Under the pieces are notes generated by a model. That model had not been told where the DNA came from and did not search any database. It worked only from the letters and a program-made list of their open reading frames with translations. Positions 1 to 32,000 of a DNA stretch of 32,000 bases are shown one piece after another. Position 1 is the first letter of the stretch. Each line of letters starts with the position of its first letter. Source of the DNA: Candidatus Saccharimonadota bacterium (lineage in GTDB: Archaea > Nanohalarchaeota > Nanosalinia > Nanosalinales > Nanosalinaceae); the NCBI RefSeq assembly GCF_047555085.1, contig NZ_CP180230.1, positions 510,001 to 542,000 on the forward strand, in the 5' to 3' direction. A program made the position numbers and the translations under genes.

Positions 1-469
1 TTACTTTGGACATGACCTGTTCGCCATTGAAGAACATCCTGGAGGTACCCGTATTATTTTCATGAGTGATGGTGTACATGTTCCAGCTATCAACGTTATC
101 TGCAGTATAGCTTCCTATCTTGTAGTATCCATCCTTCGTGTTCTCAAGCACGTATCCTGACCACCCGCTTTCATCGCCATCAGGATGGATTATGAATCCG
201 CTTGCTGATCTGTCTGACCATCCTGCTCCGGTAGCGTTCCATGTGCTCTGAGCTGAATGCATCCATACATTCACAGTGAATGAAGGGCTTGTCCTGTAAT
301 CATGTCTTATCCTGCCATCCACACCGTCAAAACTGTGGGAATTTTCTCCCAGAAGGCCTTTAGCTCCCTGTGAAACACCGCCTAATAAAGTTCCATGATT
401 ATCTCTCCCTGAATGATCATAGGCCTCTCCCGAAGTCCCGGTAAGCGGCCAGTATCCTGTCAAAGTCAC
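1..469 (-). CDS. LamG/concanavalin-A-like (Laminin_G_3 type) domain protein, 3' end outside window
   Basis: Not in the ORF track because it runs off the window edge. The reverse frame is open from 469 to 1 and translates VTLTGYWPLTGTSGEAYDHSGRDNHGTLLGGVSQGAKGLLGENSHSFDGVDGRI..., the same N-terminal pattern as the LamG paralogs at 28680-30741. The GTG at 469-467 overlaps the upstream stop (GTGA); TTG at 463 is an alternative start. Confidence 0.6.
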   Translation of the reverse strand, partial: MTLTGYWPLTGTSGEAYDHSGRDNHGTLLGGVSQGAKGLLGENSHSFDGVDGRIRHDYRTSPSFTVNVWMHSAQSTWNATGAGWSDRSASGFIIHPDGDESGWSGYVLENTKDGYYKIGSYTADNVDSWNMYTITHENNTGTSRMFFNGEQVMSKV

Positions 470-1242
470 AGTGTATCATCTGGCGAAATTTCTGAAGGTT
501 TTTCCAGCTGATACAGCGCTTTTATCTCAGGAGTGCTTAAAGGCCTGTCGTAAATCCTTAATTCATCCATGCTTCCTATTATCGGCTGGTAGTTTGTCGG
601 AGGTGTTCTCTCACCGATATAGGTTTTCTCTGCACCTGCAGTGAAATCAAGAATCCATTCGCCTTCTTTAACTCCATCAACGAACACTTTGAAGCTGTTT
701 CCCTGTTTCCTAACGACGTAATGATGCCATGAACCATCGAAAGGTATCGTGAAGCTTGATTTCTGATAGATATCTGCAACGCTACTATGAAGATCCAGTT
801 TAGGATCAGATGGTTCATACTGGACAGCAAAGTATGTGGCCTGATCGCTGCCAGAAGCTGACTCCGAGTACATCGTTGCATGTCCATCCGGCCCTTTATC
901 GGTGTGCGCCGCCCAGAAACTCAGAGTGGCATTCTCCATCGAAGGAATTCCTATAACCTCTCCAAGTTCCAGGGCGTCATCGCTGCTGTCAAAAGCCAGA
1001 GCAGTTCCATACTTGCCGGACACCCAGTCCCCATCAGTAGTCCCATCGTTACTCATCACTTCATCTGTTACTGTTGAACCCGAACCCGAGTCCATAGGAT
1101 AGTACGCGACAAGGCCTTCAGTCAGGGAACCGTGAAAATACCCTTGCTGTAAACTCCCGCCACGAGAAATATTGTCAGCTACAGTTCCTGCTGAATCCTC
1201 CGGACTTCTGAAATCATCACCGTTCCAGTTTAACTTCGGCAT
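466..1242 (-). CDS. LamG/concanavalin-A-like domain protein
   Basis: 258 aa ORF. Motifs LVAYYPMDSGSGSTVTD...GKYGTALAFD...LSFWA...WHHYVV...FKVFVDG...DELRIYDRPLSTPEIKALY are typical of Laminin_G_3 jelly-roll domains. No N-terminal signal peptide is visible. Confidence 0.8.
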   Translation of the reverse strand: MPKLNWNGDDFRSPEDSAGTVADNISRGGSLQQGYFHGSLTEGLVAYYPMDSGSGSTVTDEVMSNDGTTDGDWVSGKYGTALAFDSSDDALELGEVIGIPSMENATLSFWAAHTDKGPDGHATMYSESASGSDQATYFAVQYEPSDPKLDLHSSVADIYQKSSFTIPFDGSWHHYVVRKQGNSFKVFVDGVKEGEWILDFTAGAEKTYIGERTPPTNYQPIIGSMDELRIYDRPLSTPEIKALYQLEKPSEISPDDTL

Positions 1243-1327
1243 CTAAAACAAGTATAGGCCTCGGACAGTTTTTAATTTTCCCGCAGAACAGGGAAATTTT
1301 TTAACGAAAGACCCAGAAAACAACTGT

Positions 1328-1675
1328 ATGAGCACATTTCTCGCAGAACTGGTGATGACTTCCCTGACAGTGGTAGCGCCAGGCCTATACTTCCTGCTAT
1401 TTGTAGAGCCGGCAGAAGGCCTGAAAGGGTACAGATACAGATTTCTGGAGGAAAATGGTGCACTGGAATCAATCAACAACGCTGCCACAGTCGGAGTAAT
1501 CGGCTACATGATTTTCATCCTGTCAGTCCCTGCATTGAATGCTTTCTTCGGCACAGTATTCTCTCTGACGGTAACACAAGCTGTGAACTCTATGGGGACA
1601 GTGCTTCAGGTATTTACGCTGATTATACTTACTTTACTGAACACTACGCTGGCATATCTGGGCCTCAGAAAATAA
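1328..1675 (+). CDS. small integral membrane protein (about 3 TM helices), unknown function
   Basis: 115 aa ORF with three long hydrophobic segments. An ATG start lies downstream of A/T-rich boxes in a divergent spacer. The stop abuts the stop of the convergent gene with 0 nt between them. Confidence 0.55.
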   Translation: MSTFLAELVMTSLTVVAPGLYFLLFVEPAEGLKGYRYRFLEENGALESINNAATVGVIGYMIFILSVPALNAFFGTVFSLTVTQAVNSMGTVLQVFTLIILTLLNTTLAYLGLRK

Positions 1676-2332
1676 TCATTCGCTGTAAAGCGGATCGTTG
1701 AATATCTGTCCCAGAATCTTCGCTCCTGTATCTATCCCGAGATCTTCATCTATCTCCAGGATTTTCTCCTCTCTTTTCTTCCCGAGTTCTACAGCCTCAA
1801 CAATATTTTCTTCCTCAGGCCTTGGAACATAGCTTACAAGCTCCAGATACTTCAGATCTTTCTTCCTGATCACGCCTTCCGAGACAAGTTCCTCTGCCTT
1901 CTCACGTGTAGGCCTCTCGATATGGCCTTCAACAACATTGCTGGCGAAATACTCCACATCGTCTTCAGGATAGCCGAGGAATTCTCCTACACCCTCATCT
2001 GAGAATCCGTAGAAACGTCCTTCAGTACTTTCCAGTTCTTCAAATCTTTCGCCATCACTTGCGATAAAGAATCCTCCTTTGAAAAGCCTAGAATCCCTAC
2101 GCAGAATCTTATCTAAAAGGCCTCTTTCACCTTCTCCGCCCGTGTAGATATACTCGAGATCGAACTCTCTGCAGAAATCTTCCAGGATGTTCCTGTCCTT
2201 CATATCAGGGTTCATTATCAGCACTCCAGGCCTCTCCCCGATCACGAGGAGGTAAAGAGCCAGTTTCTCGTCCTGGACGACGGCATCATTCAGGCGGTGC
2301 TGGAAGTAGTCCTGCACAAGTTCTGGTTCCAT
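1676..2332 (-). CDS. acidic hypothetical protein
   Basis: 218 aa ORF whose acidic composition is consistent with neighbouring genes. No motif was recognised with confidence. Confidence 0.6.
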   Translation of the reverse strand: MEPELVQDYFQHRLNDAVVQDEKLALYLLVIGERPGVLIMNPDMKDRNILEDFCREFDLEYIYTGGEGERGLLDKILRRDSRLFKGGFFIASDGERFEELESTEGRFYGFSDEGVGEFLGYPEDDVEYFASNVVEGHIERPTREKAEELVSEGVIRKKDLKYLELVSYVPRPEEENIVEAVELGKKREEKILEIDEDLGIDTGAKILGQIFNDPLYSE

Positions 2333-2377
2333 AGCTTCAGTTTAACTTAAAAGGGTTAAAAATTGTTCTGTATCTTT

Positions 2378-3007
2378 ATGGGCCTGAAACTTCTTGTTAC
2401 AAGCGATTTTCACGCCGACGAACAGCTTAAAGACGCAGCTATAGAGGAGGCGAACAGCGGAGACTACGATATTTTTCTGAATCTGGGTGACTTCATGACA
2501 GAGGAGTACGCCGAGGAACTTTTCGAACCTATAGAAATCCCGGCGCTTGGATGTACCGGTAACAGGGATATGCATTTCAGCAGCGAGTTCATGGACGGTC
2601 CGGTGCCGGTGTACAACTTTCTGGAAGCTGATATCGACGACGAGTATCTTCTGATCCTTATCGGAGGCGACTTCCCAGAGGATATCAAGCAGAAAGTCGA
2701 CGACCTGCTTCAGGACAGAGACGGATCAAAAGTTATAATCGGATCACATTATCCACCGAAGAAGCTGGGAGACAGAGTTCACTCCGGCGAAAGAGTAGGA
2801 TTTGACCAGTACCGTGAACTCCTTATCAAGCACAAGCCAGCTCTCTGGGCCTCAGGCCATATCCATGAAGACTTTGGACGTAACTCACTTTTCGACACAG
2901 AGTTCATCAACGCAGCAGGAGAGGAAACAGGAAAGGCCTACTCGGTAACTATAGGAGATGAAGGAGGAGTAGAAGATATAGAGGAGATACAGCTCGTCGA
3001 AAAGTAG
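2378..3007 (+). CDS. metallophosphoesterase (calcineurin-like phosphoesterase)
   Basis: Ordered motifs SDFHAD (DxH), LGDF (GD), GNRD (GNH/D-type), GSHYPP and SGHIHEDFG (GHxH). ATG at 2378 is preferred over the track start (TTG) at 2363. Confidence 0.75.
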   Translation: MGLKLLVTSDFHADEQLKDAAIEEANSGDYDIFLNLGDFMTEEYAEELFEPIEIPALGCTGNRDMHFSSEFMDGPVPVYNFLEADIDDEYLLILIGGDFPEDIKQKVDDLLQDRDGSKVIIGSHYPPKKLGDRVHSGERVGFDQYRELLIKHKPALWASGHIHEDFGRNSLFDTEFINAAGEETGKAYSVTIGDEGGVEDIEEIQLVEK

Positions 3008-3016
3008 GGAAATTTT

Positions 3017-3796
3017 CTAGAAATCGACGACAAGATTGTCGTAGGCCTCTTCAAGAGCATCATCTACGTATTGGAGCTCCTGAAGTACAGGCCTTCCGAA
3101 CTCCTCGTCTTCATAAACAGCTGCTTCCTGTGAATCAAAATATCCCTGCTGTATATCATCTCTTCTCCTTAACTCGTGAAGTCTTCGATTCTTCAGCTGC
3201 TGAACTCTTGACTGAAGGCCTTCAAGCTCGCCAACTAGATCTACAGCGTCGTCAAGATCTACAGGCAAAGGATTCTCCTCGTTTAGTTCGTATAATGTAT
3301 CTTTTACTTCTTTGATGTCGTGCATGTAGTTTCTCAGGCTGTCTCTTTCCACTTTCGCATCCTGGACTATGTGCTCCCGCAGTTTCGCAGGATACTTGGA
3401 AAGCTTCTCGAACTGGCCTTTGACAACTTCATTAAACTGTGCGCCGTTGTCAAGATGCTTGATAAACTGCAGTGCGCTTCCATCATCTATGTCGGGTACA
3501 TTGGCAAGTTCGTCGAATAGATCAGCTGCTGGGAGCGAGAGATCGTATTCGGAGGCAAAAATACTGATTCTGTCCTTCGAGTTCTCTCTATTGAAGAACT
3601 CCTCGCTGTATATATCTATGACTTTGTTTCCGGCTTTTGAGGATAACATCTGGCGCCCTCCACCGTTTTGAACAGGTTGAGACAGAACTTTTTCACGGAA
3701 ATCCTGTAAAGAATCTATGTCATCCTCCAGATCCCTTATAGCTTCTTCAACAGTCTCAAAGGCCTTTTCAGTGTATTCCTGTGCCGGATTGCTCAT
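3017..3796 (-). CDS. acidic coiled-coil hypothetical protein
   Basis: The track ORF extends to 3895, but that extension overlaps the upstream gene and is basic and Ser-rich. The internal start MSNPAQEYTEKAFE at 3796 fits the gene spacing. Confidence 0.6.
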   Translation of the reverse strand: MSNPAQEYTEKAFETVEEAIRDLEDDIDSLQDFREKVLSQPVQNGGGRQMLSSKAGNKVIDIYSEEFFNRENSKDRISIFASEYDLSLPAADLFDELANVPDIDDGSALQFIKHLDNGAQFNEVVKGQFEKLSKYPAKLREHIVQDAKVERDSLRNYMHDIKEVKDTLYELNEENPLPVDLDDAVDLVGELEGLQSRVQQLKNRRLHELRRRDDIQQGYFDSQEAAVYEDEEFGRPVLQELQYVDDALEEAYDNLVVDF

Positions 3797-3851
3797 GGAA
3801 TGGGAAGGCTTCAGAAAAATTATAACTGTTACTTGGACTCGACAAAATTTT

Positions 3852-7455: not shown

Positions 7456-7506
7456 ACAGCATTAGTTGCAGGCCTATAATAAATATTTTCTACATAAAGA
7501 GAGTTC

Positions 7507-9961: not shown

Positions 9962-10441
9962 TTATACAAACTCCAGATCGTTGTTATCATCTCTCTGCAG
10001 AGGCCTTTCAGGAAACACCACGCCTCTCCGTACATCTATATCGACATCCTCTTTCTCTGCAACGTACTCTATTATCTGTACCGCCTGTCCCTGACAGAGA
10101 TTATGAATCTCCCCGGAAACAGTCACAGCCTCCTCGTCCAGGCCTCTGACAACGTCTATGAACTCATCCGCGTTATCGTACTTCAGCTTGGCCTCTCCCT
10201 GAACTGTCTCAAACCAGTGATCAACTTCCTCAGATAGGCCTCCAAGATAATCTCTGGAGTACTCCGTCCCTGTCTCCTCCATCACCGCTATATCTGCATC
10301 TGACTCGAGGTCCTTCTCGAACTCTCCGAAAAATTCGTGGTTGTGCCGGAAGTAATCCTCAGGCCTCAGGCCTAGCTCCTGGTACTCATCGCTCTCAAAA
10401 GCGTATCCTGGGTGTACAGCCAGGTAAAGAGAGGAGTCCAT
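9962..10441 (-). CDS. acidic hypothetical protein
   Basis: 159 aa ORF lying 14 nt upstream of, and on the same strand as, the kinase-like gene 9366-9947, so it is probably co-transcribed. Confidence 0.6.
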   Translation of the reverse strand: MDSSLYLAVHPGYAFESDEYQELGLRPEDYFRHNHEFFGEFEKDLESDADIAVMEETGTEYSRDYLGGLSEEVDHWFETVQGEAKLKYDNADEFIDVVRGLDEEAVTVSGEIHNLCQGQAVQIIEYVAEKEDVDIDVRRGVVFPERPLQRDDNNDLEFV

Positions 10442-11089: not shown

Positions 11090-11233
11090 CCAACACAACA
11101 ATTAAGAGAACGGATGAGGCCTCATCAATCGCTGACGGCCCGCTTATACTGGAAAGAATTCCTCTAGAAGTCGCATTCGTCTTCAAAGCCGGTACACAGT
11201 AAGACATCAAGATAGAAAAAAGAAAAAAGAGGC

Positions 11234-12800: not shown

Positions 12801-12838
12801 AACATTCGAGAGATAAGACAGATTCAAGGCCTCCAATT

Positions 12839-14221: not shown

Positions 14222-14358
14222 TAGGCCAGATTGATGAAGACGACAACGTCCTTGTCGTGACAGGGATTCAGCACGCACTTGATGCCGATGGAACGCTTGC
14301 AGGCCTGCTCTCACAAGAATACGATGTCAATGTAGCTCCGTATCACAACGACTGGTAA
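14203..14358 (+). CDS. 3' continuation of the TraB/GumN-like gene in the -1 frame
   Basis: The -1 frame is open from 14086 to 14358 and reads ...EWYEQIVGQIDEDDNVLVVTGIQHALDADGTLAGLLSQEYDVNVAPYHNDW. This is acidic like real proteins here and resembles the C-terminal VVxGxxH motif of the family. A T6 run follows its stop. Confidence 0.5.
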   Translation, partial: EWYEQIVGQIDEDDNVLVVTGIQHALDADGTLAGLLSQEYDVNVAPYHNDW

Positions 14359-14432: not shown

Positions 14433-15038
14433 ATGAGAAAACTTGCAATACTAATGACGCTCGTACTGGCAATGAGTACCGCAGCCCTTGCAAACCCGAT
14501 TTTCGAGGCTCGAGGAGCTGAAGCCAGCAACGCACTTTACCAGGAGAGATCCAGTGCTGCATGTCCGGATGAGGTATCGGAAGACGTATGCATCAAGCCG
14601 ATCAGACTTGAACTAGTCGTCCAGACATGGGTAGACCCTGACAGCGATGGAGATGGAATCCTTACTCTGGAAAGTACAGAGACACTATCCTCGAACAGAG
14701 GACAGGTAACTGCAGCAGTAACTTCTCCAGAAAAGAAGCCGAAGTTCAAGGCCGGAGCAGAACTCTCCAAGATCAGTTCCATGCACGTCGGAGATCTTGA
14801 CGGCGACGGATACGGAGATATAGCTCTCAGCATCAGACAGGAAGAACTGAACAACAAGAACAGCTACAGAGTTACAGCGACATCCCTTGAAGACTGGAGA
14901 CTACCTGCCAGAGTCGAGCCGATGAACAAGGCAGAACTCATCGAGGCAATGGCCTCTGAATCAGGCCTGTCTAAAGCCGACGCCAAGAGATGCCTGGAAG
15001 ACGTAACAGGAGAGATAATACTTGGAGAAGACCGCTGA
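14433..15038 (+). CDS. secreted protein with DxDGDG (FG-GAP/VCBS-like) motifs and a C-terminal HU/IHF-like N-terminal-helix fragment
   Basis: Signal peptide MRKLAILMTLVLAMSTAALA, then DPDSDGDGILT and GDLDGDGYGDIAL. The last 38 aa, MNKAELIEAMASESGLSKADAKRCLEDVTGEI, closely follow the HU N-terminus pattern MNKxELIxxxAxxxGLSKxDAxxxxxxxxxxI. Confidence 0.65.
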   Translation: MRKLAILMTLVLAMSTAALANPIFEARGAEASNALYQERSSAACPDEVSEDVCIKPIRLELVVQTWVDPDSDGDGILTLESTETLSSNRGQVTAAVTSPEKKPKFKAGAELSKISSMHVGDLDGDGYGDIALSIRQEELNNKNSYRVTATSLEDWRLPARVEPMNKAELIEAMASESGLSKADAKRCLEDVTGEIILGEDR

Positions 15039-15532: not shown

Positions 15533-15644
15533 AAGAAATCTTGATCATTGTTACAATAAAAAACTAAGTCAGGCCTCTACACGTCTCAAGACTGCATTGC
15601 AGCAGTTTTTATATCCCTCTAGACAGAAAACAAGATTACAGGAA

Positions 15645-17075
15645 ATGAACTCGGATAAGAAAGATTTTGATCCCGACGAACTGATATCTCAAACAATCAG
15701 ATTTCTGGAACGGAAAAAGAAGGAATACGTCGAAACAGTGATAGAGGAGACTGAAGAGGCCCCTCACACCAATCCCAATTATGCGGACATAGATGTCTAT
15801 ATCGGCTCAAATAGCTATTATAATACGATCCGAGAGGCCGTCCACGATATGGATCTTGGAGTGGAATCGTACGATGATCTCAGTTACTCGAATTTTCTGG
15901 CGGTAATGATGAGACATTATCTCATGCAGAGACTTGGAGATACGGATATCAGGCTCTGGACAGAGCAAGATCAGGCCTACTATCCTATGCCTCATCTTAT
16001 CAAGAAACTGGATGAGCAAGGAGTTGACTGGATGGATACAGATGATGACTGGGCTATTGGACGCGGAGGAAAGACCGGTGTCTGGATGTACTTTTTCCCG
16101 GAGGAAGAAGTGGATAGTCTAGTCAGGAAAATCAAGTTAGATATCGCAGAAAGAGGGAGCTGTCCGCAGGAATTCAGAGAGGCCTTGAGCGAGTTCCCGA
16201 AAGTATTGAACAATCACTCTATGCATGGACGTAGAGACTGGAATTCTTTCCATGCAACGCTTAACCACGAGTTCACGCATAACTATCTGCATCGTAACTC
16301 AACTGCGAAAAAACTTGGTATGGAGTTCATCGACAGCCTGGATGAAGCGACCTGCCAGTTCATCAGCAAGTACATCCGTATGAAGCAAAAAACTAACAGG
16401 GAATCAGCTCTGAACTTCCACAGTTCTCCCGATTCATACGGTGCTTACGGCAATCCCGAGGAGGTACATTACTTCGTCGAGATAATAAGAGAAAACGTAC
16501 GGTACGCCCGGGAAAACGAGGCCCGTCTCAACGTCATCGATCACGTCAGGCAGAATACTTTGAGATTCTTCCAGGACGGAGGAGAAAAGGAAGACTTCCT
16601 GAAACAGCTTACACCGCAGAACTTCCAGATCCCTATCCACAGACTTGAAAGAGCGGACGAGGGAATCAGCCACAAACTGGAGAGGATGAAAGAAGACCTC
16701 CAGTACATACAGAGAAATATCCGGGACGAACCTGAAAACGTGAAACAGGAATTCGAGGAGATAAAACAGGATTTCAGCCAGATAAAAAGCCCTCAACAGA
16801 TCAAAAAAGAAGTGATGGAACAGGCCTACCACAAAATGATCGAAGAACAGAAAGACTACGTCTTCCTCGGATCATTCATCGAAAAAGAACTGAAAAAAGA
16901 AATAGAAGAGTTCCTGGACTCCCAGCAACACATAAAACAGATGGAAAACATTCTGAACAAGAACAGAAGGATAGAAGACCAGATGAAGCGGCTTGAAGAC
17001 CTGAACAATCAGATACAGGCCTCTGAAGAAGAGTTCAAAAGCATACTTCAAGATCTGGAAAGACGGACAAGTTAA
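15645..17075 (+). CDS. putative zinc metallopeptidase-like protein (HExxH) with long C-terminal coiled coil
   Basis: HATLNHEFTHNYLH contains HEFTH, with Glu residues 15-22 aa downstream (gluzincin-like spacing). The C-terminal 150 aa are K/E/Q-rich heptad-like. ATG 15645 is preferred over TTG 15597. Confidence 0.55.
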   Translation: MNSDKKDFDPDELISQTIRFLERKKKEYVETVIEETEEAPHTNPNYADIDVYIGSNSYYNTIREAVHDMDLGVESYDDLSYSNFLAVMMRHYLMQRLGDTDIRLWTEQDQAYYPMPHLIKKLDEQGVDWMDTDDDWAIGRGGKTGVWMYFFPEEEVDSLVRKIKLDIAERGSCPQEFREALSEFPKVLNNHSMHGRRDWNSFHATLNHEFTHNYLHRNSTAKKLGMEFIDSLDEATCQFISKYIRMKQKTNRESALNFHSSPDSYGAYGNPEEVHYFVEIIRENVRYARENEARLNVIDHVRQNTLRFFQDGGEKEDFLKQLTPQNFQIPIHRLERADEGISHKLERMKEDLQYIQRNIRDEPENVKQEFEEIKQDFSQIKSPQQIKKEVMEQAYHKMIEEQKDYVFLGSFIEKELKKEIEEFLDSQQHIKQMENILNKNRRIEDQMKRLEDLNNQIQASEEEFKSILQDLERRTS

Positions 17076-17076
17076 A

Positions 17077-17421
17077 ATGGAACTGCGTTACATAATCATC
17101 AAAGTAAACGAGATGGACAGAGCGAAAAATTTCTACAGCGAATTGACAGGTAAAACGCCGGAGATGGACGGCAACAGGATGGCAAAATACAGATTCAACG
17201 GGATAAAAATAGGCCTCTACAATCCCGAAGCCGACGGAGAAAAATCTGAAGTACAGCGTGGAGACTCTGTAATACCTGCTTTCGGAGTAGAAAATTTCGA
17301 GGAAGCACTGGAAAAAGTCAGAGGCCTCACAGAAATCCGGGACGAAAAAGAAATAGATGGACACAGATGGTTCACTTTCAGAGATTCTGAAGGAAATCTC
17401 CTGGAGATACATGAACGCTGA
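17077..17421 (+). CDS. VOC family (glyoxalase/bleomycin-resistance/dioxygenase fold) protein
   Basis: 114 aa. The beginning LRYIIIKVNEMDRAKNFYSELTG and the end WFTFRDSEGNLLEIHE are classic VOC-module patterns. The start lies 1 nt after the upstream stop. Confidence 0.8.
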   Translation: MELRYIIIKVNEMDRAKNFYSELTGKTPEMDGNRMAKYRFNGIKIGLYNPEADGEKSEVQRGDSVIPAFGVENFEEALEKVRGLTEIRDEKEIDGHRWFTFRDSEGNLLEIHER

Positions 17422-17457
17422 TCAGGATTAAATACATGGAGATACAAAACAGGCCTC

Positions 17458-18507
17458 ATGAAACTTTACAGCAAACTTGAAGGCCTCGAACTTCGTATTG
17501 AAAGTTTTGAGACAGAGACACGTGAGAAAAAAGTCTCGGAAAACTTCACAAGAAAAACCACTGTAGTCAAGTTCTCCGGCAACAGAAAGACGGGGAAAGG
17601 AGAAGACGTCATCTACGAACCGGAAAAACACTTCTATCCAGGCCTGGAACTTGAAGGAACATATACTTTCCACGAGTTCTCGCAAAAATTAGAGGAAGAA
17701 AAACTTTTCCCGGAAGACGTCGAATACGATAAAACCGATGAGAACTACAGGCGATGGGCAATCGAAAGCGCAGCACTCGACCTGGCGCTGAAACAGAACA
17801 ACCAAACACTGGCTGAAGCGCTTGGAGAAAGCTACAGGCCTCTAAGATTCGTCGTATCACTGAGTATGGACACTCCAAGTATCGAAAAATTACAGGACTT
17901 GATCGAACTCAACTCCAGTATAGAGTTCAAGTTAGATGCCTCAGAGGCCTGGGACGAAACTTTTGTCGAAAAACTTGTCGAGATGGACAGAGTAAAAGTA
18001 GTCGATCTCAAAGGCCACTACAAGAAAGAAAACGTCGGCATGAATCCAGATCCGGAAATCTATCGATTAATCGCGGAGAAGATGGACGCCCTGATCGAAG
18101 ATCCAAAACTCACAGACGAGACAGAAAAAGTACTGGAAAACTTCAAAGAACGCATCACATGGGACTACCCAATCACAGGCCTCAAATCAGTCAAAAAACT
18201 TCCATTCAGGCCTGACTATCTAAATATAAAGCCGTCAAGATTCGGCACAGTCAAATCCCTACTGGACACTATCGAATACTGCCAGGAAAACAACATACAG
18301 ATGTACGGCGGAGGCCAGTTCGAACTCGACATCGGAAGACAACACATCCACGCCGTCGCCTCAATCTTCTACCCCAAAGGCCCCAACGACGTAGCACCAA
18401 GAACATACAATCAAGAAAAAATACCGGAAAATCCTCCTAAAAGTCCACTGAGGCCTGAAAAAGACTTGGAAGGCCTGGAATGGAGATATAGAGATAACTC
18501 ATTTTGA
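17458..18507 (+). CDS. enolase-superfamily (mandelate racemase/muconate lactonising enzyme-like) protein
   Basis: AIESAALDLALKQNNQTLAEALG (capping domain), FKLDASEAW, LIEDP, WDYP, NIKPSRFGTV and GGQFELDIGRQHIHAVAS follow the order of the metal-ligand and barrel motifs of the superfamily. Confidence 0.6.
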   Translation: MKLYSKLEGLELRIESFETETREKKVSENFTRKTTVVKFSGNRKTGKGEDVIYEPEKHFYPGLELEGTYTFHEFSQKLEEEKLFPEDVEYDKTDENYRRWAIESAALDLALKQNNQTLAEALGESYRPLRFVVSLSMDTPSIEKLQDLIELNSSIEFKLDASEAWDETFVEKLVEMDRVKVVDLKGHYKKENVGMNPDPEIYRLIAEKMDALIEDPKLTDETEKVLENFKERITWDYPITGLKSVKKLPFRPDYLNIKPSRFGTVKSLLDTIEYCQENNIQMYGGGQFELDIGRQHIHAVASIFYPKGPNDVAPRTYNQEKIPENPPKSPLRPEKDLEGLEWRYRDNSF

Positions 18508-18526
18508 TGAAGCCTAGATAAATATT

Positions 18527-19081
18527 TTATTGAGAATTTCTCCATTGCACAAATCTCATTACGATTATAAAAAACCCAAACAGGCCGAAAAGCATACTAA
18601 CATTCCACATTACTATTGTAGGGTTGTTAGATAAAGCTACTGAGACTGTCATAGATTCCTCAGAAACACGTTCTAGTTTAACGTTAAACTGCTCTAATGA
18701 AACAGATTTCCCATTAGAAATATCGGCATGTACTTGTTCAGAAGTTCCGCTTTTCTTTATCACTAAATTACTCTCAACAGAGTAATCATGATCAATTAAT
18801 CCGTCCTCACCGATATCTTTGTCATTTTTCGAACAAACTAACTCCCTAGAAACATCAAAGAGACCTAGGGGAATTTCTTTACAATGTAATACTTCTTCAC
18901 CATTTGCACTAGTATCTAATTTATACTCTCCGCCATCTGTTACTATTTCTCCCTTCACTCCTACGAAGTTAAACACAGTAGCAACTAGAATAAAACCAAT
19001 AATAGCACCTTGAATGTATTTCATCCTATTAGGATCTTCAATAAATTCTGTGAAATCACTAAGCAACTCGATTACTGACAT
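18527..19081 (-). CDS. membrane protein (N- and C-terminal TM helices, extracytoplasmic middle), unknown function
   Basis: 184 aa with hydrophobic segments AIIGFILVATVFNFV and VSMLFGLFGFFIIVM. It lies in a low-GC, AGGCCT-free patch. Confidence 0.55.
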   Translation of the reverse strand: MSVIELLSDFTEFIEDPNRMKYIQGAIIGFILVATVFNFVGVKGEIVTDGGEYKLDTSANGEEVLHCKEIPLGLFDVSRELVCSKNDKDIGEDGLIDHDYSVESNLVIKKSGTSEQVHADISNGKSVSLEQFNVKLERVSEESMTVSVALSNNPTIVMWNVSMLFGLFGFFIIVMRFVQWRNSQ

Positions 19082-19156
19082 AATAAGTACATAGCATCTC
19101 CAACCGATTAGATTAAAGAAATGCTGGAAGTGGTAGATTGAGGCTCTACCAAGCCT

Positions 19157-19390
19157 TTATCTTTGTACTAATTCTTCAACAAATTCTGCTGCTCTAGTGC
19201 CGCCTTTTGTCATCATTAAAACCCCGATGATAAAGACGATTACCGTTAGTGACGGTCCCATAACTTCTGGACCTAGGCTACCAACGATATTAAGCCCTAG
19301 AAGCATCTCTGCCATAGGCTCTAGAGTAAGCAGAGTAAGAACTCCTCCCACTACTGTTGAATAGTGTTTGTCTACTGGCAAATTTTTCAC
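19157..19390 (-). CDS. small two-TM membrane protein
   Basis: 77 aa in the track (GTG 19390). A TTG at 19381 sits 8 nt after AAGGAGG and is the more likely start. It contains two hydrophobic helices. Confidence 0.5.
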   Translation of the reverse strand: MKNLPVDKHYSTVVGGVLTLLTLEPMAEMLLGLNIVGSLGPEVMGPSLTVIVFIIGVLMMTKGGTRAAEFVEELVQR

Positions 19391-19406
19391 CTCCTTAAAA
19401 ATTTAG

Positions 19407-19427
19407 GAAGGGAGATTTACTCCCTTT
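19407..19427 (-). terminator. stem-loop immediately after the nrdJ stop, followed by a U-run
   Basis: AAGGGAG (19408-19414) and CTCCCTT (19420-19426) form a 7 bp stem with a 5 nt loop. On the minus-strand RNA it is followed by CCUAAAUUUUU. Confidence 0.4.
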
Positions 19428-22370
19428 TCAGCACTTTGACCATCCACAGTCTGGGCATTTCTTGCAGCCTTCCTGTAGGACGAGCATGCCGCCGCAGTCT
19501 GGGCATTCTGGATTGCCTCCGTCTTCGACGATTGCTGATGCGTCGGCCTGGTCTGCTTCCTGTTCTACTTCTGTCTTGGCCTGTGTTGTTCCTGTGTCTT
19601 CAGCTGGTTCGTCGTACTGGTCGACTGTTTGCTGGCTTCCCTGTCCGCCTTTGAGATGCCTTTTCATGGCTTCTGCGATGGCGTCTGGGATTGAGTGGAT
19701 CTGTTGTCCCTGATCCCATGCAATCTGTGGGGAGCGGATGTCGTCAAGCTGATTGACGAGTTCTTCTGCGTCTGCACCGCTTCTCAAGGCCAGTGATGAG
19801 ACTCTTCCAAGGGCCTCTGTGAAGGACTGTGTGTATCCTCCACTTTTTCCGACTCTGGCGAATACTTCGAAAGGCCCGTTGTTCTCTGCGTCGTTGATTG
19901 TGACGAAGAGATCTCCGTAGGCTGTCTCAATTTCCTGTGTTGTGCCGTTGACGACGTTAGGCCTCTCCTCGACTCCGTTGGACTTGCTCATCTTTGTGGA
20001 GTTGTCCGGTGTCGTGGAGTCTGCTTCTACGCCTTCCTGTGTGACTTCCTTGGAGAGATCTTCTGTCTCTTCCTGGACTTCCATGTCTGTGTCGCCGACG
20101 ACTTCCTTGAACTCGTTGGAGCTCAACAGGCTTTCTGCCCCGCCGAACTCTTCGATGACTTCGGAAAGCATGTCGACTTTGTCCATGTCTGTCAAGGTGT
20201 TCTCCTTGTTGGTCTGCATGACCTGTGTCTCTCTTGTACCGTCTCTGTACACTGTCATGCCTTTGACGCCTTTATCGTAGGCCCTCATATAGGCCTCTCT
20301 GACGTCTTCCTTTGTAGCCGAGTTAGGGAAGTTGCATGTCTTGGAGATTCCCGAGTGATTGTGGTACTGGAAAGCTGCCTGGATGTCGACGTGTTCCTTG
20401 GCGCTTACCTGATTGGCTGTGGCAAACATCTCCTTGACATCTGCCGGAAGAACCTCGTCAGGGATGCTTTCTACTCCTTCCCATTCGTTGTTCTCCATCT
20501 TCTCCTGCGCAGCTGCCTTGACTTCCTCGATGTCAACGTCGTTGGCTTCAAGAGCTTTGATGAAGTAGTCGTCGAACTCGACGAGCATGTCTTCTCCCTG
20601 GATGTCCTTTGCAACGTTCTTGAAGTAGGCCAGGCTGAAGATTGGCTCGCATCCTCCGGATGTGTTTCCGATCATGGAAGTCGTTCCTGTCGGTGCGATC
20701 GTTACAGTGTTGTGATTTCTCATCTTTAGGCCGTCTTCAAAGTCTTCTGCGTCCAGGCCTCCTGTGTACTGCTCGAACCAGTCTTCGTGTTCTGTTGGAT
20801 TTGCCCACTTGGATTTCTCCCATTCAGGGAACTCTCCACGTACATCGGCAAGCCTGTTAGATTCCTCGATGCTGAAGCGTGTGATAACTCTCTGGATCTC
20901 TTTCGCTGCTGCAACTGATTCATCTGATCCGTAGCGGATTCCGAGCTGGATCAGCATCTGAGCGAATCCCATAAGGCCCAGTCCGACTTTTCTGAGGTCT
21001 GTAACTGTTTCCTCGATCTCCTCCAGTGGGAAGTCACTCATTGTGACGACGTTGTCAAGGAATCTGAGGCCTGTCTTCGCTACATCCTCGAACTCTTCCA
21101 TGTCAAGTGCGTCGTGGATGTACTCCTGCATAGCTGCCTCAAGATCGCCTTCATCCTCGAAGTCGTAACGATCCTGATTCTCCTGTTTCCATTCAGGGAA
21201 GGAAAGAGCTGTGCCGTCTCCCTGATCCTCTACAAGCAAGGAAAGATTGATGTGGCCAAGATTACAGGCCTCGTAGTTCTCGAGAGGCTGCTCTCCACAC
21301 GGATTCGTGGCCTCGATGCTGTGTTCAGGATGCTTCTCTACGTCGAATGAGTGCATCTCGTTGGTCTCATCGTACATGAACAGGCCTGGCTCTCCGTTTC
21401 TCCAGGCTCCGTCGATCAAAGTTTCCCAGATGAAACGTGCTGGAAGAGTCATCTCTTCGCCAGGTTCAAGCTCGATATCGAACTCGTCGATCTCATCTCC
21501 GAACGTGTGTGAGTGATCTCTCCAGAAGTTATCGTCTCTTCCCTGATCGGATCCTGAGGCCTCAGGATACCAGTCCTCATCGCTGTTGTAGAACTGTGCG
21601 GTCATCTCAGAGACTTCGAAAGGCTCGTCGGTTCGAGGATTGATCAACGTGTACTCCTCATCGTTCTTGACGGCTTCCATGAAGTCACTTGTCAGGCCTA
21701 CAGAGATGTTGAAGTTGGAAAGATTTCCTTCCTTTCTCTTGGCTGTGATGAAACGTAGAACGTCAGGATGGTCGATACGCATGATGCCCATCTGGGCTCC
21801 TCTACGTTTTCCTCCCTGCTTGATCGTTCCACACATGGTGTCGAACACCTGCTGGAAGCTCATAGGCCCGGAGGAAACTCCTCCAGTAGAACTTACGATA
21901 TCTCCCTTAGGCCTCATAAGATGGAAAGGATATCCCATTCCTCCTCCACTCTGGAAGATCTTTGCAGCGTCGTGAACAGTAGAAAAGATCGAGTCCATAT
22001 CGTCTTCAGGATGGACAACGAAACATGCTGAAAGCTGCTGAAGATCTGCTCCAGCATTCATAAGTGTTGGAGAGTTAGGCATGAACTTCTGATGTGTCAT
22101 CAGGTCGTAGAACTCTTTCCATGAGTCCTCAAAGTCTACATCGTCGTACTCCTTGTCTGGCTGTGCAACGTTCTTAGCGACACGTTCGAACATCTCCTCA
22201 GGAGTCTCTGTGACGTTTCCGTCCTTGTCTTTGAGAAGATATCGGGCTGGAAGAATCCTGTCATAGGCGTTCTCTGTCAGCCTTTCCTCGACTGTATCGC
22301 CTGTTGTGCGTTTTACCGGTAGTTTGAAATCTGCTTTCTGCTTGATGTCGTTTTTCATCTTGTGGATCAC
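19428..22370 (-). CDS. nrdJ: adenosylcobalamin-dependent ribonucleotide reductase, class II
   Basis: 980 aa. Active-site region [22 protein letters not shown], with [13 protein letters not shown] and GMTVYRDG. The C-terminal zinc ribbon is CPDCGG...CKKCPDCG. The start is GTG 22370 or ATG 22358. Confidence 0.95.
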
Positions 22371-25773: not shown

Positions 25774-25846
25774 AGTTGACTAATTTCAAAGGCCTCTACA
25801 TTTTTCCCACATTATCTTTTAATCCAAGCAACTCGTTTTCTAGACT

Positions 25847-28036: not shown

Positions 28037-28051
28037 TTTTTTGTTACACCT

Positions 28052-28552: not shown

Positions 28553-28679
28553 TTTTCAAATCACTCTCAATAAAAGACCCTTGAAAAAAGGCCTATACCG
28601 AATTTTTAAGTCGAAAATTTTCCAATTTTCAAGGATAAAAACGACGGCGAGGCTTAAAAGTTAACCGATTCCTGAAAAA

Positions 28680-29345
28680 TCAGGAACCCTTCACAGAACT
28701 GACATGAAGGCCTTTACTTCCGACACCGTACAGATAACTGACTTCGCTTTCTGTCAGAGGCCTGTCATAAATCCGCAGTTCATCGATAAATCCATTGAAT
28801 CTTTCGTCATCAGAATACACTCCGCCGTCACGTCCTGTACTTCCGACAATAAAATCATCTCCAGGCGTGGTCCAGGAAGAACTCTGCATTGAGGCCTTGA
28901 GCTCTCCGTCTATATACAGTTTGACTTCTCCCGAAGATTTCCTCGTGACAACGGCGTGGTACCACTGATTCTCCGAGGCCCCGGCTTTTGATTCAAGATT
29001 CGTCCTGTCAAATCGGAAGACAAGATCATTCCCGCCGTCAATATAGTTTTTATCGAAGAGAAATCCCCATCCTGCCGTAGTATCAAATCCAAGAAGCCTG
29101 TCGTTATTATCAAGGCCTGTCCTGTTGTACCAGAAAGATATACTGAATTCTTCAGAATCAGAGAACTGGAAGTTAGGCCCGAGATTGACATAGTCAGTGA
29201 AGCTATCAAATCTGAAACAGTTCCCATTCAGAATCCCGGAACTATTTCTGGAGGTCACACTCAAGTCAGAACTACTGTAGTCGTTGCCGGAAAGATCCAG
29301 CAAATCTCCTTCAGACTGTTCAAAATTGTAGTATGCTCTGAGCAA
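28680..29345 (-). CDS. LamG/concanavalin-A-like domain protein
   Basis: 221 aa with a TTG start 7 nt after the upstream stop. Motifs: LRAYYNFEQSEGDLLDLSGND...FRFD...FSISFWY...WYHAVV...VKLYIDG...IDELRIYDRPLTESEVSYLY. Confidence 0.75.
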   Translation of the reverse strand: MLRAYYNFEQSEGDLLDLSGNDYSSSDLSVTSRNSSGILNGNCFRFDSFTDYVNLGPNFQFSDSEEFSISFWYNRTGLDNNDRLLGFDTTAGWGFLFDKNYIDGGNDLVFRFDRTNLESKAGASENQWYHAVVTRKSSGEVKLYIDGELKASMQSSSWTTPGDDFIVGSTGRDGGVYSDDERFNGFIDELRIYDRPLTESEVSYLYGVGSKGLHVSSVKGS

Positions 29346-29352
29346 AAAACTG

Positions 29353-30741
29353 TCACCTCGAATTTACTGTAAACTTCCTCAAGTCACGGCCTCTAGTCCC
29401 CCAACGATACAGCTCGAAGACTTCTGAAGGAGACAAGGCCTTGTCATAAATCCTGACATCATCAATGTCTCCATCCATGTATTCATCTCCACTTCGGTCT
29501 CCTATACTTGTTTTAGAGAACTGTTTCGTGTTTGGAGTATTGCCGTTTCCTCCGGAGGCTGCCCTACTGCCGTTCATATAAATACTCATTTGATAATCCG
29601 ACGGACGGCAAACAAAGGCAAGATGATACCATTCTGAATTAATGACAGTTTCAGGAGATGTAATATGAGAATTCTGGCCCGAATTAGAGTACCAGAACTC
29701 AGGTTTCTCGTTTTCATTTACACGTGTGTCCCACCAGGCATTAGCTCCATTTCCCGCCCATACAGTTTTCCTGGCTCCTGTACTTGAAGTATTCACCCAC
29801 GCAGAGACAGTTATCCCTGTAGAAGTGAAATCCTCCGAAAGACTGTTACCAGAATTAACGCTAACGAAGTCACCCTGAGATGAATTAAATCTCTTGGACT
29901 GACCTCTCACCCCGTTTGAATAACCAGTAGACGTCTGATCACTCGAAGAATAAGAACCCCACGAATCATCCACGTTCCCATCAAAGGCCCATCTCGAGAC
30001 TGCAGAAGGACTATTATCATTATTAAGAGGTCTCACATAGTCTCCATTGCCCCACTCGTAAAGCGTCTGGATTTCAGATTGAGAAAGAGACCGGTTGTAT
30101 ACCCTCATAGGGCCGCTTGTAAAATCTGTATATGTCTCTGACTTTCCATCCCCCTTGTTCCTTGCACCCATGAAGTATGCACAGTTCTCTGAATCATGAT
30201 CTGTCTGGAAGTTAGGCATTCCATCGAAGGCCTCAGAGGCCTTTTGTACACCATCTACAAAAAGCCTGATCTGTGATCCATCGCAAGTTACCGTTATATT
30301 GTACCATTTATCAGGATCTACAGATTCTCCTGTTGAAATATGATATCTCTGAGTTGAAGAACTACCTTCACCTCTATACGCTCTCAAGTATATACCGCCT
30401 TCAGCCCAAGTGCCATCATCTACACCTACAGAAATCGAATTATCATTACCGGCATTTGAACCATCATAATCCGTCACACCTTCCATTGTATTGGCCGTGG
30501 TATTTGGCTTGATCCATCTAGAGATGCTAAAACTACCTCCTGCAGAAATTAAATCATTCATAGATCCTATATTGACATATCCGCTATTCCCCTCGAAGCT
30601 TATTGCCTCAAGGCCTCCTTTACCAGCTACGCCCTGTGTAAGGCCTCCGTTCAGATTCCCGTGATTTCCGTTGCCAGAAAGATCATAGGCCTTTGATCCG
30701 GATTTTTCGTGTAGAGGCCACCAGCCAATCAATCCAGTCAT
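29353..30741 (-). CDS. tandem LamG-domain protein (two LamG modules)
   Basis: 462 aa. The first module runs LIGWWPLHEKSGSKAYDLSGNGNHGNL ... MRVYNRSLSQSEIQTLY and the second SRWAFDGNVDDSWG ... IDDVRIYDKALSPSEVFELY. It is Ser/Asn/Gly-rich and has no signal peptide. Confidence 0.8.
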   Translation of the reverse strand: MTGLIGWWPLHEKSGSKAYDLSGNGNHGNLNGGLTQGVAGKGGLEAISFEGNSGYVNIGSMNDLISAGGSFSISRWIKPNTTANTMEGVTDYDGSNAGNDNSISVGVDDGTWAEGGIYLRAYRGEGSSSTQRYHISTGESVDPDKWYNITVTCDGSQIRLFVDGVQKASEAFDGMPNFQTDHDSENCAYFMGARNKGDGKSETYTDFTSGPMRVYNRSLSQSEIQTLYEWGNGDYVRPLNNDNSPSAVSRWAFDGNVDDSWGSYSSSDQTSTGYSNGVRGQSKRFNSSQGDFVSVNSGNSLSEDFTSTGITVSAWVNTSSTGARKTVWAGNGANAWWDTRVNENEKPEFWYSNSGQNSHITSPETVINSEWYHLAFVCRPSDYQMSIYMNGSRAASGGNGNTPNTKQFSKTSIGDRSGDEYMDGDIDDVRIYDKALSPSEVFELYRWGTRGRDLRKFTVNSR

Positions 30742-30876
30742 CTCTACTTAATCTTTGTAGAGGCCTGTGTTAAATCTGTTTGCAGAGAAACGGGAAATTT
30801 TAGGAGAAAAATTGATGCAGTGTCCGAAAATCTCAATGAGATTTTCTTAAGCAAGCAAATGAGAAAATTTGCGGCC

Positions 30877-30893
30877 GAAGCAGTATCTGCTTC
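30877..30893 (-). terminator. hairpin downstream of tRNA-Gly
   Basis: GAAGCAG-TAT-CTGCTTC is a perfect 7 bp stem. On the minus strand it follows the T-rich stretch directly after the tRNA 3' end. Confidence 0.35.
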
Positions 30894-30919
30894 TCTGAGC
30901 ATCAAAAGAAATTTTTTGA

Positions 30920-30991
30920 TGCGGTGTCCGGGATTTGAACCCGGGTCGCGTGCATGGCAAGCACGAGTCGTAGCCACTGGACCAACACCGC
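30920..30991 (-). tRNA. tRNA-Gly (anticodon GCC), no encoded CCA
   Basis: Folded manually from the reverse complement GCGGTGTTGGTCCAGTGGCTACGACTCGTGCTTGCCATGCACGCGACCCGGGTTCAAATCCCGGACACCGCA. It has a 7 bp acceptor stem, a 5 bp anticodon stem with loop TTGCCAT, a 5 bp T stem with loop TTCAAAT, and discriminator A. Confidence 0.95.
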
Positions 30992-31024
30992 TTTCCTGTG
31001 TAAAGTAAGAAGTGGTGTTACTGT

Positions 31025-31033
31025 TTTAAATTA
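31025..31033 (-). promoter_or_regulatory. TATA-like box for tRNA-Gly
   Basis: TTTAAATTA lies 34-42 nt upstream of the tRNA 5' end. The same 9-mer recurs at 31073-31081. Confidence 0.4.
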
Positions 31034-31072
31034 AATGTGGAGGCCTGTAACATGTCAAGAAAATGCCGCTGA

Positions 31073-31081
31073 TTTAAATTA
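31073..31081 (+). promoter_or_regulatory. TATA-like box for the zinc-finger gene
   Basis: TTTAAATTA lies 22-30 nt upstream of ATG 31103, which fits a leaderless or short-leader archaeal transcript. Confidence 0.4.
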
Positions 31082-31102
31082 GATACGGGGTAAAAACTTT
31101 CC

Positions 31103-31342
31103 ATGCCTGAGACAAAGATGTCGAAATGTGTTTTCTGCGGGGAATCCGCAACAAAGAAAAACTCCGCCGGACAGCCGGTCTGTAACGAACACAAGGACGA
31201 CGATCCGAAGGAAGTTGCCTGTCCGGAATGCGGGATGCCGATGAAGATCAAGGAAGGCCGCTACGGATTCTTCTGGGGATGCGAAGGATACCCTCAGTGC
31301 GAGGAAACTTTCCAGGTAGAGGCCCTGATCGACGACGAATAA
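31103..31342 (+). CDS. stand-alone topoisomerase-type C4 zinc-finger protein
   Basis: 79 aa. CVFCGES...CNEH plus CPECGMPMKIKEGRYGFFWGCEGYPQCEETF matches the zf-C4_Topoisom pattern. Confidence 0.75.
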   Translation: MPETKMSKCVFCGESATKKNSAGQPVCNEHKDDDPKEVACPECGMPMKIKEGRYGFFWGCEGYPQCEETFQVEALIDDE

Positions 31343-31382
31343 AAAACAAAAACTTTTATTGTTACCTGTAGATAGTTACAGC

Positions 31383-32000
31383 ATGAGTGGTGCTGATTTC
31401 TTCGATACCAGGATGGAAACAGTAGATGACGTGGTTGAGAAGATGGATCAGTTCGAAAAATTTCTTGATGAGAGAGGCCTTGAAAGTTTCAGGCCTTTCC
31501 TGAGAGCATACAGAAAAATTACTCTGAAAGTGATTCAGGCCTCGGAAAAAGACGTCTTCGATAATCCGGGGAAGCTTGAGGAGCTTGATATCCGTTTCGC
31601 AGAGCCTTACTTTGAGGCAATGGAGAAATATTTTCTTGAAGGAGAGAAAAAACAGCCGTGGAAAGAATACCTGAATTACGTTGAGAGAGATGATTCAAGG
31701 CCTGTGCTGGAGCTTTTGCTTGGTATAAATGCACATATCAACGCTGATCTGGGCCAGGCGATGAAAGAAACTGATTACAGCGAGAGACAGGACTTCGAGG
31801 AGATAAACAGGATTCTTCTGGAGGCATTGATCCCTGTAATGGCCGATACAGCTGTACAGAGGAAAGATTTCGAGACACTGGGATTCCTGGGCGTACAGCC
31901 TGTAGCATTCCTGGGCCTGAAAAAAGTAGTTCAATGGAGAGAACAGGCCTGGAAGAACAGAAATAAGGACATCACGGTACTGAGAAAAGAAACAGAGAGG
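31383..32000 (+). CDS. DUF5995-like protein, C-terminus outside window
   Basis: Not in the ORF track because there is no stop within the window. The frame is open from ATG 31383 to 32000 (206 codons). FLRAYRKITLKV ... FAEPYFEAM ... QPWKEY ... LLLGINAHINADLGQAM resembles the DUF5995 motif set, as recalled from memory. Confidence 0.55.
   Translation, partial: MSGADFFDTRMETVDDVVEKMDQFEKFLDERGLESFRPFLRAYRKITLKVIQASEKDVFDNPGKLEELDIRFAEPYFEAMEKYFLEGEKKQPWKEYLNYVERDDSRPVLELLLGINAHINADLGQAMKETDYSERQDFEEINRILLEALIPVMADTAVQRKDFETLGFLGVQPVAFLGLKKVVQWREQAWKNRNKDITVLRKETER

Follow-up and report, generated by a model that had tools for sequence, protein, structure and literature searches.

The stretch of DNA analyzed here, henceforth termed the window, comprises 32,000 bases of a 1,046,238-bp contig from Candidatus (Ca.) Nanosalina sp. 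VS9-1, a nanohaloarchaeon of the DPANN archaea. Its 38 called genes are archaeal and cover 93% of the window. Scattered through genes and spacers alike is the palindromic hexamer AGGCCT, the subject of this report. One of the genes, assigned with Pfam, encodes a class II ribonucleotide reductase (RNR; 19428..22370, minus strand) and carries nine AGGCCT copies. Its product matches WP_414837235.1 (Ca. Nanosalina sp. VS9-1) with 100% identity, the annotated protein beginning four codons inside the open reading frame (ORF) called here, 19428-22370(-). This gene served as the marker for finding relatives and, in a codon alignment of 23 genomes, for site-by-site comparison.

AGGCCT occurs exactly 128 times in the window, i.e., about 4.0 times per kb, and accounts for 2.4% of the sequence. 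From base composition (46.2% G+C), 6.6 copies are expected, which corresponds to an observed-to-expected ratio (O/E) of 19.4, and dinucleotide-preserving shuffles of the window contain 7.7 copies on average and 14 at most. It is the most frequent of all hexamers, the runner-up among palindromic hexamers reaching 25 copies. A preliminary description of the window had put the number at about 128 and the excess at about 20-fold, and both figures are borne out by the exact count. The individual sites that it listed are all present, with a single slip of one base (28588, correctly 28589), and its tandem pair at 10361/10368 is correct: this pair, AGGCCTnAGGCCT (10361..10373, within ORF 9962-10441(-)), is the closest in the window, with the minimum spacing of 7. 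Its counts of neighboring words were right to within a few, with GGGCCT present 13 times (given as 12), TGGCCT 8 times, CGGCCT 4 times, and AGGCCA, AGGCCC and AGGCCG together 48 times (given as 45).

The repeated unit is the bare hexamer, since the flanks of the copies are near-random, with almost zero information, and repeated 10-mers are rare, the commonest in the window having four copies. The context CAGGCCTG accounts for 8 of the 128 copies. A dispersed repeat element, such as a repetitive extragenic palindrome or a miniature inverted-repeat transposable element, is ruled out along with any other longer motif, as conservation stops at 6 bp. Placement along the window is Poisson-like: the variance-to-mean ratio in 1-kb bins is 1.05, spacings agree with an exponential distribution (Kolmogorov-Smirnov p=0.59), and spacing modulo 3 is flat, without a 3-base periodicity. 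The longest stretch free of AGGCCT (18477..19958, a gap of 1488 bp) is within Poisson expectation, the chance of a maximal gap of this length being about 0.27, and therefore provides no evidence for a foreign island.

In total, 115 copies lie within genes (3.9 per kb), 11 in spacers (4.6 per kb), and 2 across gene ends. The intergenic copies are found in divergent spacers (1256..1261 and 15571..15576), in convergent spacers (11117..11122, with another copy at 11230 that straddles the end of the next ORF, and 12827..12832), and at 7470..7475, 25790..25795 and 28589..28594. One lies at 14301..14306 in a 211-bp stretch without a called gene, one at 17451..17456, 1 bp upstream of the start of ORF 17458-18507, and two in the spacers between ORF 29353-30741 and a tRNA-Gly gene (30761..30766) and between this tRNA gene and ORF 31103-31342 (31041..31046). 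The preliminary statement that almost every intergenic spacer holds a copy was too strong, as 11 of the 26 spacers of at least 20 bp do, with 6.6 expected from the overall density.

This distribution bears on a function at the RNA level, in which AGGCCU would pair with other RNAs or be recognized by a factor that binds or modifies RNA. As a palindrome, the word is present in every transcript whatever the strand of the gene, so that mRNAs from both strands carry it, and all codon phases are used. However, density is as high or higher in spacers, divergent and convergent ones included, copies show no positional trend along genes in the window, and a comparable role was not found for HIP1, the highly iterated palindrome (HIP) GCGATCGC of cyanobacteria. 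We consider an RNA-level function very improbable.

A more basic alternative is that codon usage, amino-acid usage or base composition produces the excess as a by-product, and AGG, CCT, GCC and GGC are indeed fairly frequent codons in the window. The in-gene copies occupy all three codon phases, as described previously (24, 40 and 51 copies, read as RP, x-A-[SYFLCW] and x-G-L, respectively). A synonymous-codon shuffle within genes, which retains the proteins and their codon usage, yields 22.0±4.1 copies (maximum 37) and a codon-order shuffle 8.9±3.0, compared to the 115 observed. Synonymous opportunities, i.e., positions at which AGGCCT can be written without changing the protein, are filled in 115 of 157 cases (73%) where codon usage predicts 16, and 24 of the 27 Arg-Pro dipeptides encoded in the window are written AGG-CCT. 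Moreover, spacer density equals coding density, and relatives with the same proteins and similar G+C content contain AGGCCT at about the level expected by chance. The preliminary description had named two outcomes that would reduce the enrichment to such a by-product, a count far below 100 and a codon-preserving shuffle with a similar count; the count is 128 and the shuffle gives 22.0±4.1 against 115. These shuffles refute the by-product explanation, to which we assign practically no weight. The earlier proposal of a DNA-level process that acts on the exact hexamer and overrides codon choice is supported by the shuffles and the 73% fill, and needs to be widened only in that the amino-acid sequence is shifted as well (see below). 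The high-order Markov comparison suggested alongside it is not a valid null: orders 1, 2 and 3 predict 7, 23 and 61 copies, and order 4 reaches 120 only because 128 of 176 AGGCC and 128 of 153 GGCCT occurrences fall within AGGCCT. We rejected 4th- and 5th-order models as circular, their sub-words being dominated by AGGCCT itself.

Distribution of AGGCCT among nanohaloarchaea

For comparison, RNR neighborhoods of 4-24 kb each were collected from 34 other nanohaloarchaeal genomes, giving 35 with the window. The trait is bimodal across this set. Eleven genomes, that of the window included, are AGGCCT-rich (O/E 10.6-26), one is intermediate (L021, O/E 6.1), and 23 are ordinary, henceforth termed poor (O/E 0.2-3.7). 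Among the rich are two complete genomes, SG9 and M3_22, and a cultured organism, Ca. Nanohalovita haloferacivicina BNXNv, with 60 copies in a 22.9-kb RNR locus, while the poor set contains the cultured Ca. Nanohalobium constans (0.2), Ca. Nanohalococcus occultus (1.2), Ca. Nanosalina J07AB43 (2.6) and the nearest relatives of the window. AGGCCT is the top hexamer in each rich locus, and in the RNR loci counted no alternative inflated palindrome was found in poor genomes. The word "genome-wide" in the preliminary description thus holds for 32 kb of VS9-1 and for the 9-23 kb loci of ten other rich genomes, and goes beyond these data where it speaks for whole chromosomes.

In trees of the RNR and of 16 genes, the rich genomes belong to one large clade, where poor genomes are intermingled with them, and every outgroup is poor. 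The closest relatives of the window by RNR amino-acid identity are L014 (92%, poor), L155 (88%, poor), L156 (87%, poor) and L157 (87%, rich). Of 19 aligned AGGCCT sites, the window shares 15 with the rich genome L001 and one with its closest relative, the poor L014. The trait is thus present in one species and absent from another although their conserved proteins differ by just 8-13%. AGGCCT enrichment is not a property of the whole group and is switched on in about one third of the sampled nanohaloarchaeal species. Judged from the trees, one ancestral gain followed by about four losses and about four independent gains would be equally parsimonious. We looked for remnants of decayed sites in the poor genomes inside the rich clade: in the RNR gene, 13 of their 13 AGGCCT sites coincide with positions used in rich genomes, but over 19 consensus sites these genomes resemble the outgroups (12% versus 7% identical), so that both histories stay equally parsimonious. 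A gene family specific to rich genomes was not found in the syntenic RNR locus.

Several observations were made on the collected loci. Inteins with a LAGLIDADG homing endonuclease (PF14528, PF14890) interrupt several nanohaloarchaeal RNR genes, namely those of L019, L021, L022 and L023 (1285-1356 codons) and the protein matches P0043, P0046, P0052, P0054 and P0065-P0067; the RNR gene of the window has none. A contig deposited as part of a "Colwellia polaris" metagenome-assembled genome (MAG; L012, JBLGBK010000010.1) has a nanohaloarchaeal RNR, 84% identical to that of the window, and nanohaloarchaeal synteny, and is probably mis-binned or mislabeled. Another MAG (04_S200.metabat_sspec.014_sub) contains two RNR contigs, L014 and L029, with coverages of 72.9 and 4.9, which indicates that this bin mixes two nanohaloarchaeal populations. 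One metagenome scan for relatives of the window returned a single relative of 1.9 kb. A scan of viral sequences for dense AGGCCT gave, among the matches listed, mostly tandem repeats and chance clusters, and none related to nanohaloarchaea. One viral contig (L032, IMGVR_UViG_3300029432_000018, positions 1-3639; 36% G+C) carries 13 dispersed copies in 3.6 kb, several in the context AAGGCCTT; it has no similarity to nanohaloarchaeal loci and was chosen by search pattern, so that its enrichment is partly ascertainment bias.

Among the other genes of the window, three encode proteins with concanavalin-A-like lectin domains (Laminin_G_3; 466-1242(-), 28680-29345(-) and 29353-30741(-)), which are likely surface proteins of the nanohaloarchaeal host-contact kind. 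In ORF 14433-15038(+), the last 32 residues match the start of the bacterial HU/IHF DNA-binding domain (PF00216, E=4e-6), and a faint match to the same family occurs in ORF 16562-17158(-) of the Nanohalovita locus L154.

Site conservation and neighboring words

The fill of synonymous opportunities provides a measure of strength. Across 31 genomes it amounts to 53-81% in rich genomes and to 1-26% in the others (pooled 10%), which corresponds to an odds ratio of about 19 and, as its natural logarithm, to an effective strength of about 3. Peptides able to host AGGCCT are 44% commoner in rich genomes (15.7 versus 10.9 per 1000 codons), and the force therefore also alters amino acids at weakly constrained positions.

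Site conservation was assessed with the test that Xu et al. applied to HIP1, at an overall nucleotide identity of 69%. Of the AGGCCT copies, 48.9% align perfectly between rich genomes, whereas control palindromes reach 11.2% and the full set of hexamers with four G/C positions 15.1%, so that AGGCCT sites stay aligned three to four times better than control hexamers. From rich to poor genomes the proportion is 4.5%; as this is below the controls, AGGCCT sites occupy positions that otherwise evolve fast. The codons AGG, CCT, GCC and GGC are conserved at 0.49-0.74 inside the word and at 0.22-0.45 outside, i.e., two to three times better inside, and their frequency in the window is thus a consequence of AGGCCT.

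AGGCCT could also be the binding site of an abundant dimeric DNA-binding protein, for instance in nucleoid structure, condensation or segregation, with selection favoring a high density of sites along the chromosome. The palindrome fits a dimeric reader, sites in rich genomes are conserved above control hexamers, and Xu et al. took the same result for HIP1 as a sign of selection and a nucleoid function; the graded tolerance at outer positions described below also resembles a binding-energy profile. On the other hand, placement is Poisson-like, with no regular spacing or phasing over the distances that 32 kb can reveal, and selection would have to act detectably on each of some 4000 independent sites. 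In addition, the trait appears to have been lost repeatedly without a visible replacement word, and the RNR loci examined contain no gene specific to rich genomes. Taken together, we regard selection for such a site as improbable.

To characterize what reads the word, we pooled counts of neighboring words from 170 kb of rich DNA (nine rich genomes) and 332 kb of poor DNA, in which AGGCCT has an O/E of 18.4 and 1.37, respectively. One-base variants at inner positions have rich-to-poor ratios of 0.78-1.06. Variants at outer positions are raised in rich DNA (1.45-4.1-fold), with AGGCCC/GGGCCT increased 4.1-fold and AGGCCG and AGGCCA about 1.5-fold. The raised words are confined to those holding the half-site AGGCC, and other NGGCCN words, GGGCCC included, are equally depleted in rich and poor DNA. 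Because these remain unchanged, the reader must recognize the whole hexamer, as two AGGCC half-sites, rather than just GGCC. Under a reversible model in which AGGCCT alone is favored, its neighbors would stay at baseline, as the inner variants do, and the raised outer variants therefore point to partial activity. The partial advantage of AGGCCC/GGGCCT suggests tight recognition of the inner GGCC and looser recognition of the outer A:T pair. As side observations, GGGCCC is very rare in both sets (O/E 0.16 in rich, 0.09 in poor), GGCC overall is under-represented in poor DNA (0.71), and CG-containing words such as ACCGCG, CCGCGC and ATCGCG are three to six times rarer in rich than in poor pooled loci, a deficit that may be just compositional or phylogenetic.

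The same counts speak to very-short-patch repair, which the preliminary description had raised as a possible cause. Here, a 5-methylcytosine (m5C) methyltransferase and a nuclease or glycosylase acting on T:G mismatches, i.e., a Vsr-type system, would restore C and thereby inflate the target word. This is a known route by which a methylated word can gain copies. A mismatch glycosylase gene of this kind, that of Mig.Mth, adjoins a GGCC methyltransferase gene on the Methanothermobacter plasmid pFV1. In addition, a gene for an HhH-GPD glycosylase is present in the RNR neighborhood of the rich BNXNv. However, the C-to-T products of AGGCCT are no more depleted than transversion neighbors, with rich-to-poor ratios of 0.82 for AGGTCT/AGACCT and 0.86 for AGGCTT/AAGCCT against 0.78-1.06. 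Rich AGGCCT sites correspond mostly to GGA-CTx and GCA-Txx in poor orthologues, and these A/C differences at third codon positions are beyond the reach of T:G repair. Such repair acts on one of the six base pairs and would produce small enrichments, not an 18-fold one. For the rich M3_22, REBASE lists neither a Vsr enzyme nor an m5C methyltransferase (V=0, m5C=0). The HhH-GPD gene, located on the plus strand between AP_endonuc_2 and NYN genes in rich L154 (2965-3522), occurs likewise in poor L155 (3009-3563) and is absent from the window, so its presence does not track the trait. A Vsr-type origin has little to recommend it, and we hold it to be highly unlikely. What the codon, conservation and neighbor-word data have in common is a directional force that acts on the DNA word AGGCCT itself in VS9-1 and about one third of the sampled species.

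Known systems and a possible mechanism

Uptake signal sequences (USS, Pasteurellaceae) and DNA uptake sequences (DUS, Neisseriaceae) are non-palindromic words of 9-12 bp with conserved flanks that occur about once per kb and have a known competence receptor. AGGCCT resembles them in being lineage-specific, in accumulating directionally in coding and non-coding DNA, and in its raised one-off variants. It differs as a 6-bp palindrome with near-random flanks in organisms for which a competence system is not known. An uptake or exchange signal that does not require methylation would arise if a surface or translocation protein preferred DNA with AGGCCT, so that same-species alleles with the word would be taken up and recombined more frequently and the word would spread by molecular drive as for USS and DUS. 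In favor of this idea, copies are found in spacers and all frames alike, at any place that constraint leaves free; variants with presumed partial activity are raised without depletion of specific neighbors; the trait is lineage-specific and can be lost; and recent work on HIP1 points to methylation-dependent transformation. The length, asymmetry and lower density of known uptake sequences argue against it. Furthermore, a 6-bp word discriminates little, as the GC-rich DNA of the hosts should also carry AGGCCT, competence or DNA exchange is undescribed for nanohaloarchaea, and a receptor candidate specific to rich genomes was not found in the RNR loci examined. We therefore rate a methylation-independent uptake signal as unlikely, though worth keeping in view.

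Restriction targets are normally avoided or neutral in the genome of their host. In Alcanivorax borkumensis SK2, an active StuI-type system writes AgGCcT, detected by PacBio, at a word present at 1674 sites. With a genome of about 3.1 Mb, this would be roughly 0.5 AGGCCT per kb. A StuI-type restriction-modification system shares the word AGGCCT with nanohaloarchaea and belongs to an enzyme class known to read and methylate it, but in rich genomes the word is found four times per kb and enriched 18-fold, and REBASE assigns no Type II restriction enzyme to rich M3_22 (IIR=0). The Dcm/Vsr system of Escherichia coli is comparable in that methylation-linked repair raises its own target word; its hallmarks, selective loss of T-containing neighbors and a modest gain, are absent for AGGCCT. 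Oriented chromosomal signals such as Chi and KOPS were rejected as well. They are non-palindromic and strand-skewed and AGGCCT is neither; being its own reverse complement, it cannot encode orientation.

HIPs provide the closest match. The comparison with HIP1 made in the preliminary description proved apt at the level of the class (Elhai 2015, Xu et al. 2018), although HIP1 proper was rejected, given that the word differs from GCGATCGC and the organism is a nanohaloarchaeon. Besides HIP1, cyanobacteria contain alternate HIPs, i.e., GGCGCC (Calothrix PCC 7103, O/E about 15 or more), rCCGGy, GCsGC, GGGATCCC and TCGATCGA, each accompanied by a matching methyltransferase. The HIP of Synechococcus PCC 6312, a strain unrelated to Synechocystis, is CAGGCCTG and holds AGGCCT (Xu et al.; a 2026 preprint). 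HIPs typically occur at 0.5-2.5 per kb, are lost sporadically, notably in symbiotic cyanobacteria, and in the case of HIP1 have one-base deviants biased to outer positions (Elhai). Five features of the class were tested for AGGCCT and all five are present. The word is a short, GC-rich palindrome that exceeds expectation at least 15-fold and is the top outlier of its length; copies fall in spacers and in every reading frame, beyond what codon and peptide usage explain; sites are better conserved than control palindromes, and the codons that form them better inside the word than elsewhere; and one-base deviants concentrate at the two end positions. Like HIPs, it also comes and goes sporadically among relatives. 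A further mark of HIPs is quasi-periodic spacing at 10-90 kb; within the 32 kb of the window, AGGCCT placement is Poisson-like. It is unlike HIPs in belonging to another domain of life, to a DPANN archaeon that is an obligate symbiont with a genome of about 1 Mb, in being a bare hexamer without an octamer extension, and in its density of about 4 per kb as opposed to 0.5-2.5. On balance, AGGCCT would best be viewed as an archaeal counterpart of the cyanobacterial HIPs. In the open-access literature we found no paper that connects nanohaloarchaea, or archaea of any other kind, with AGGCCT or with iterated palindromes at all, and strain VS9 is likewise unmentioned there.

By analogy with these systems, we give a probability of roughly 0.45, somewhat short of even odds, to a methylation-linked, switchable directional force as the explanation for the enrichment. 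The switch would be a single sequence-specific factor that genomes acquire or lose, and the most likely candidate is an orphan methyltransferase of the N4-cytosine class that targets AGGCCT. Two routes from such a factor to a hyper-abundant word can be envisaged. Methylation may bias mismatch or recombinational repair toward the site-bearing strand, as in the ratchet proposed by Elhai, or methylated AGGCCT may promote the integration of same-species DNA, as recent HIP1 work suggests. A direct lead comes from REBASE, which for the rich M3_22 predicts exactly one orphan Type II methyltransferase, of the N4-methylcytosine (m4C) class, and neither a restriction enzyme nor a Vsr enzyme. More tentatively still, AGGCCT may represent a true archaeal HIP system, in which one mobile or easily lost factor, probably an orphan N4-cytosine methyltransferase for AGGCCT, triggers either a genome-wide ratchet or a within-species DNA-exchange signal; we rate this fuller version as less likely than not.

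A number of points weigh against a methylation-linked force. To our knowledge, methyl-directed mismatch repair is not known in nanohaloarchaea. Elhai's ratchet, which is itself hypothetical, needs such repair, and its model places the methylated C in the central GC, whereas Alcanivorax methylates the outer C. Pfam detects no DNA methyltransferase, restriction enzyme or Vsr among the 38 ORFs of the window, and PADLOC and Pfam detect no methyltransferase, nuclease or Vsr among 93 ORFs of rich loci. The M3_22 lead comes from one genome and concerns a methyltransferase without an assigned site, and the BNXNv genome paper reports just a Type III system and no methylome. Finally, sequence data alone cannot separate selection from biased conversion.

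A motif-based regular-expression search for methyltransferases, nucleases and Vsr on all loci returned none. A Moorella enzyme of the N4/N6 family, for which REBASE predicted AGGCCT, actually writes m4C at GGGCCC. The poor strain SVXNc methylates GDGCHC instead, and avoids this word. In our loci, GDGCHC has 0 copies in the 22.9-kb locus of Ca. Nanohalococcus occultus (L152), the strain that methylates it, and 16 each in the same-sized loci of Nanohalobium (L153) and Nanohalovita (L154). Its absence from L152 agrees with the restriction-modification system published for this strain and is the opposite of what AGGCCT shows in rich genomes.

Significance of the enrichment

AGGCCT enrichment is a real, strong and unexplained feature of these genomes. 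Hyper-abundant palindromes of cyanobacteria have been known for three decades without agreement on their mechanism. An independent instance in another domain of life implies that the phenomenon is not a cyanobacterial peculiarity, and the word itself differs from the cyanobacterial ones, save for the one cyanobacterium that shares the AGGCCT core. If the interpretation holds, nanohaloarchaea would offer a second independent system for the 30-year-old HIP problem, with a culturable member (Ca. Nanohalovita haloferacivicina, grown with Haloferax) and natural on/off pairs. Since 11 rich and 23 ordinary genomes are interleaved and the genomes are only about 1 Mb in size, presence/absence association should pinpoint the causal gene, which has so far been impossible in cyanobacteria. 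With at least one rich strain available in co-culture, tests of methylation and DNA exchange are therefore feasible.

At a practical level, AGGCCT distorts codon usage and k-mer signatures, which for these DPANN archaea will affect binning, the matching of viruses to hosts and the recognition of horizontally transferred DNA; StuI, in turn, becomes a diagnostic enzyme for them. For the biology of the organisms, the interpretation, if true, would mean that about 2.4% of a 1-Mb symbiont genome has been rewritten, that proteins have been altered in the process, and that the responsible force flips on and off between sister species.

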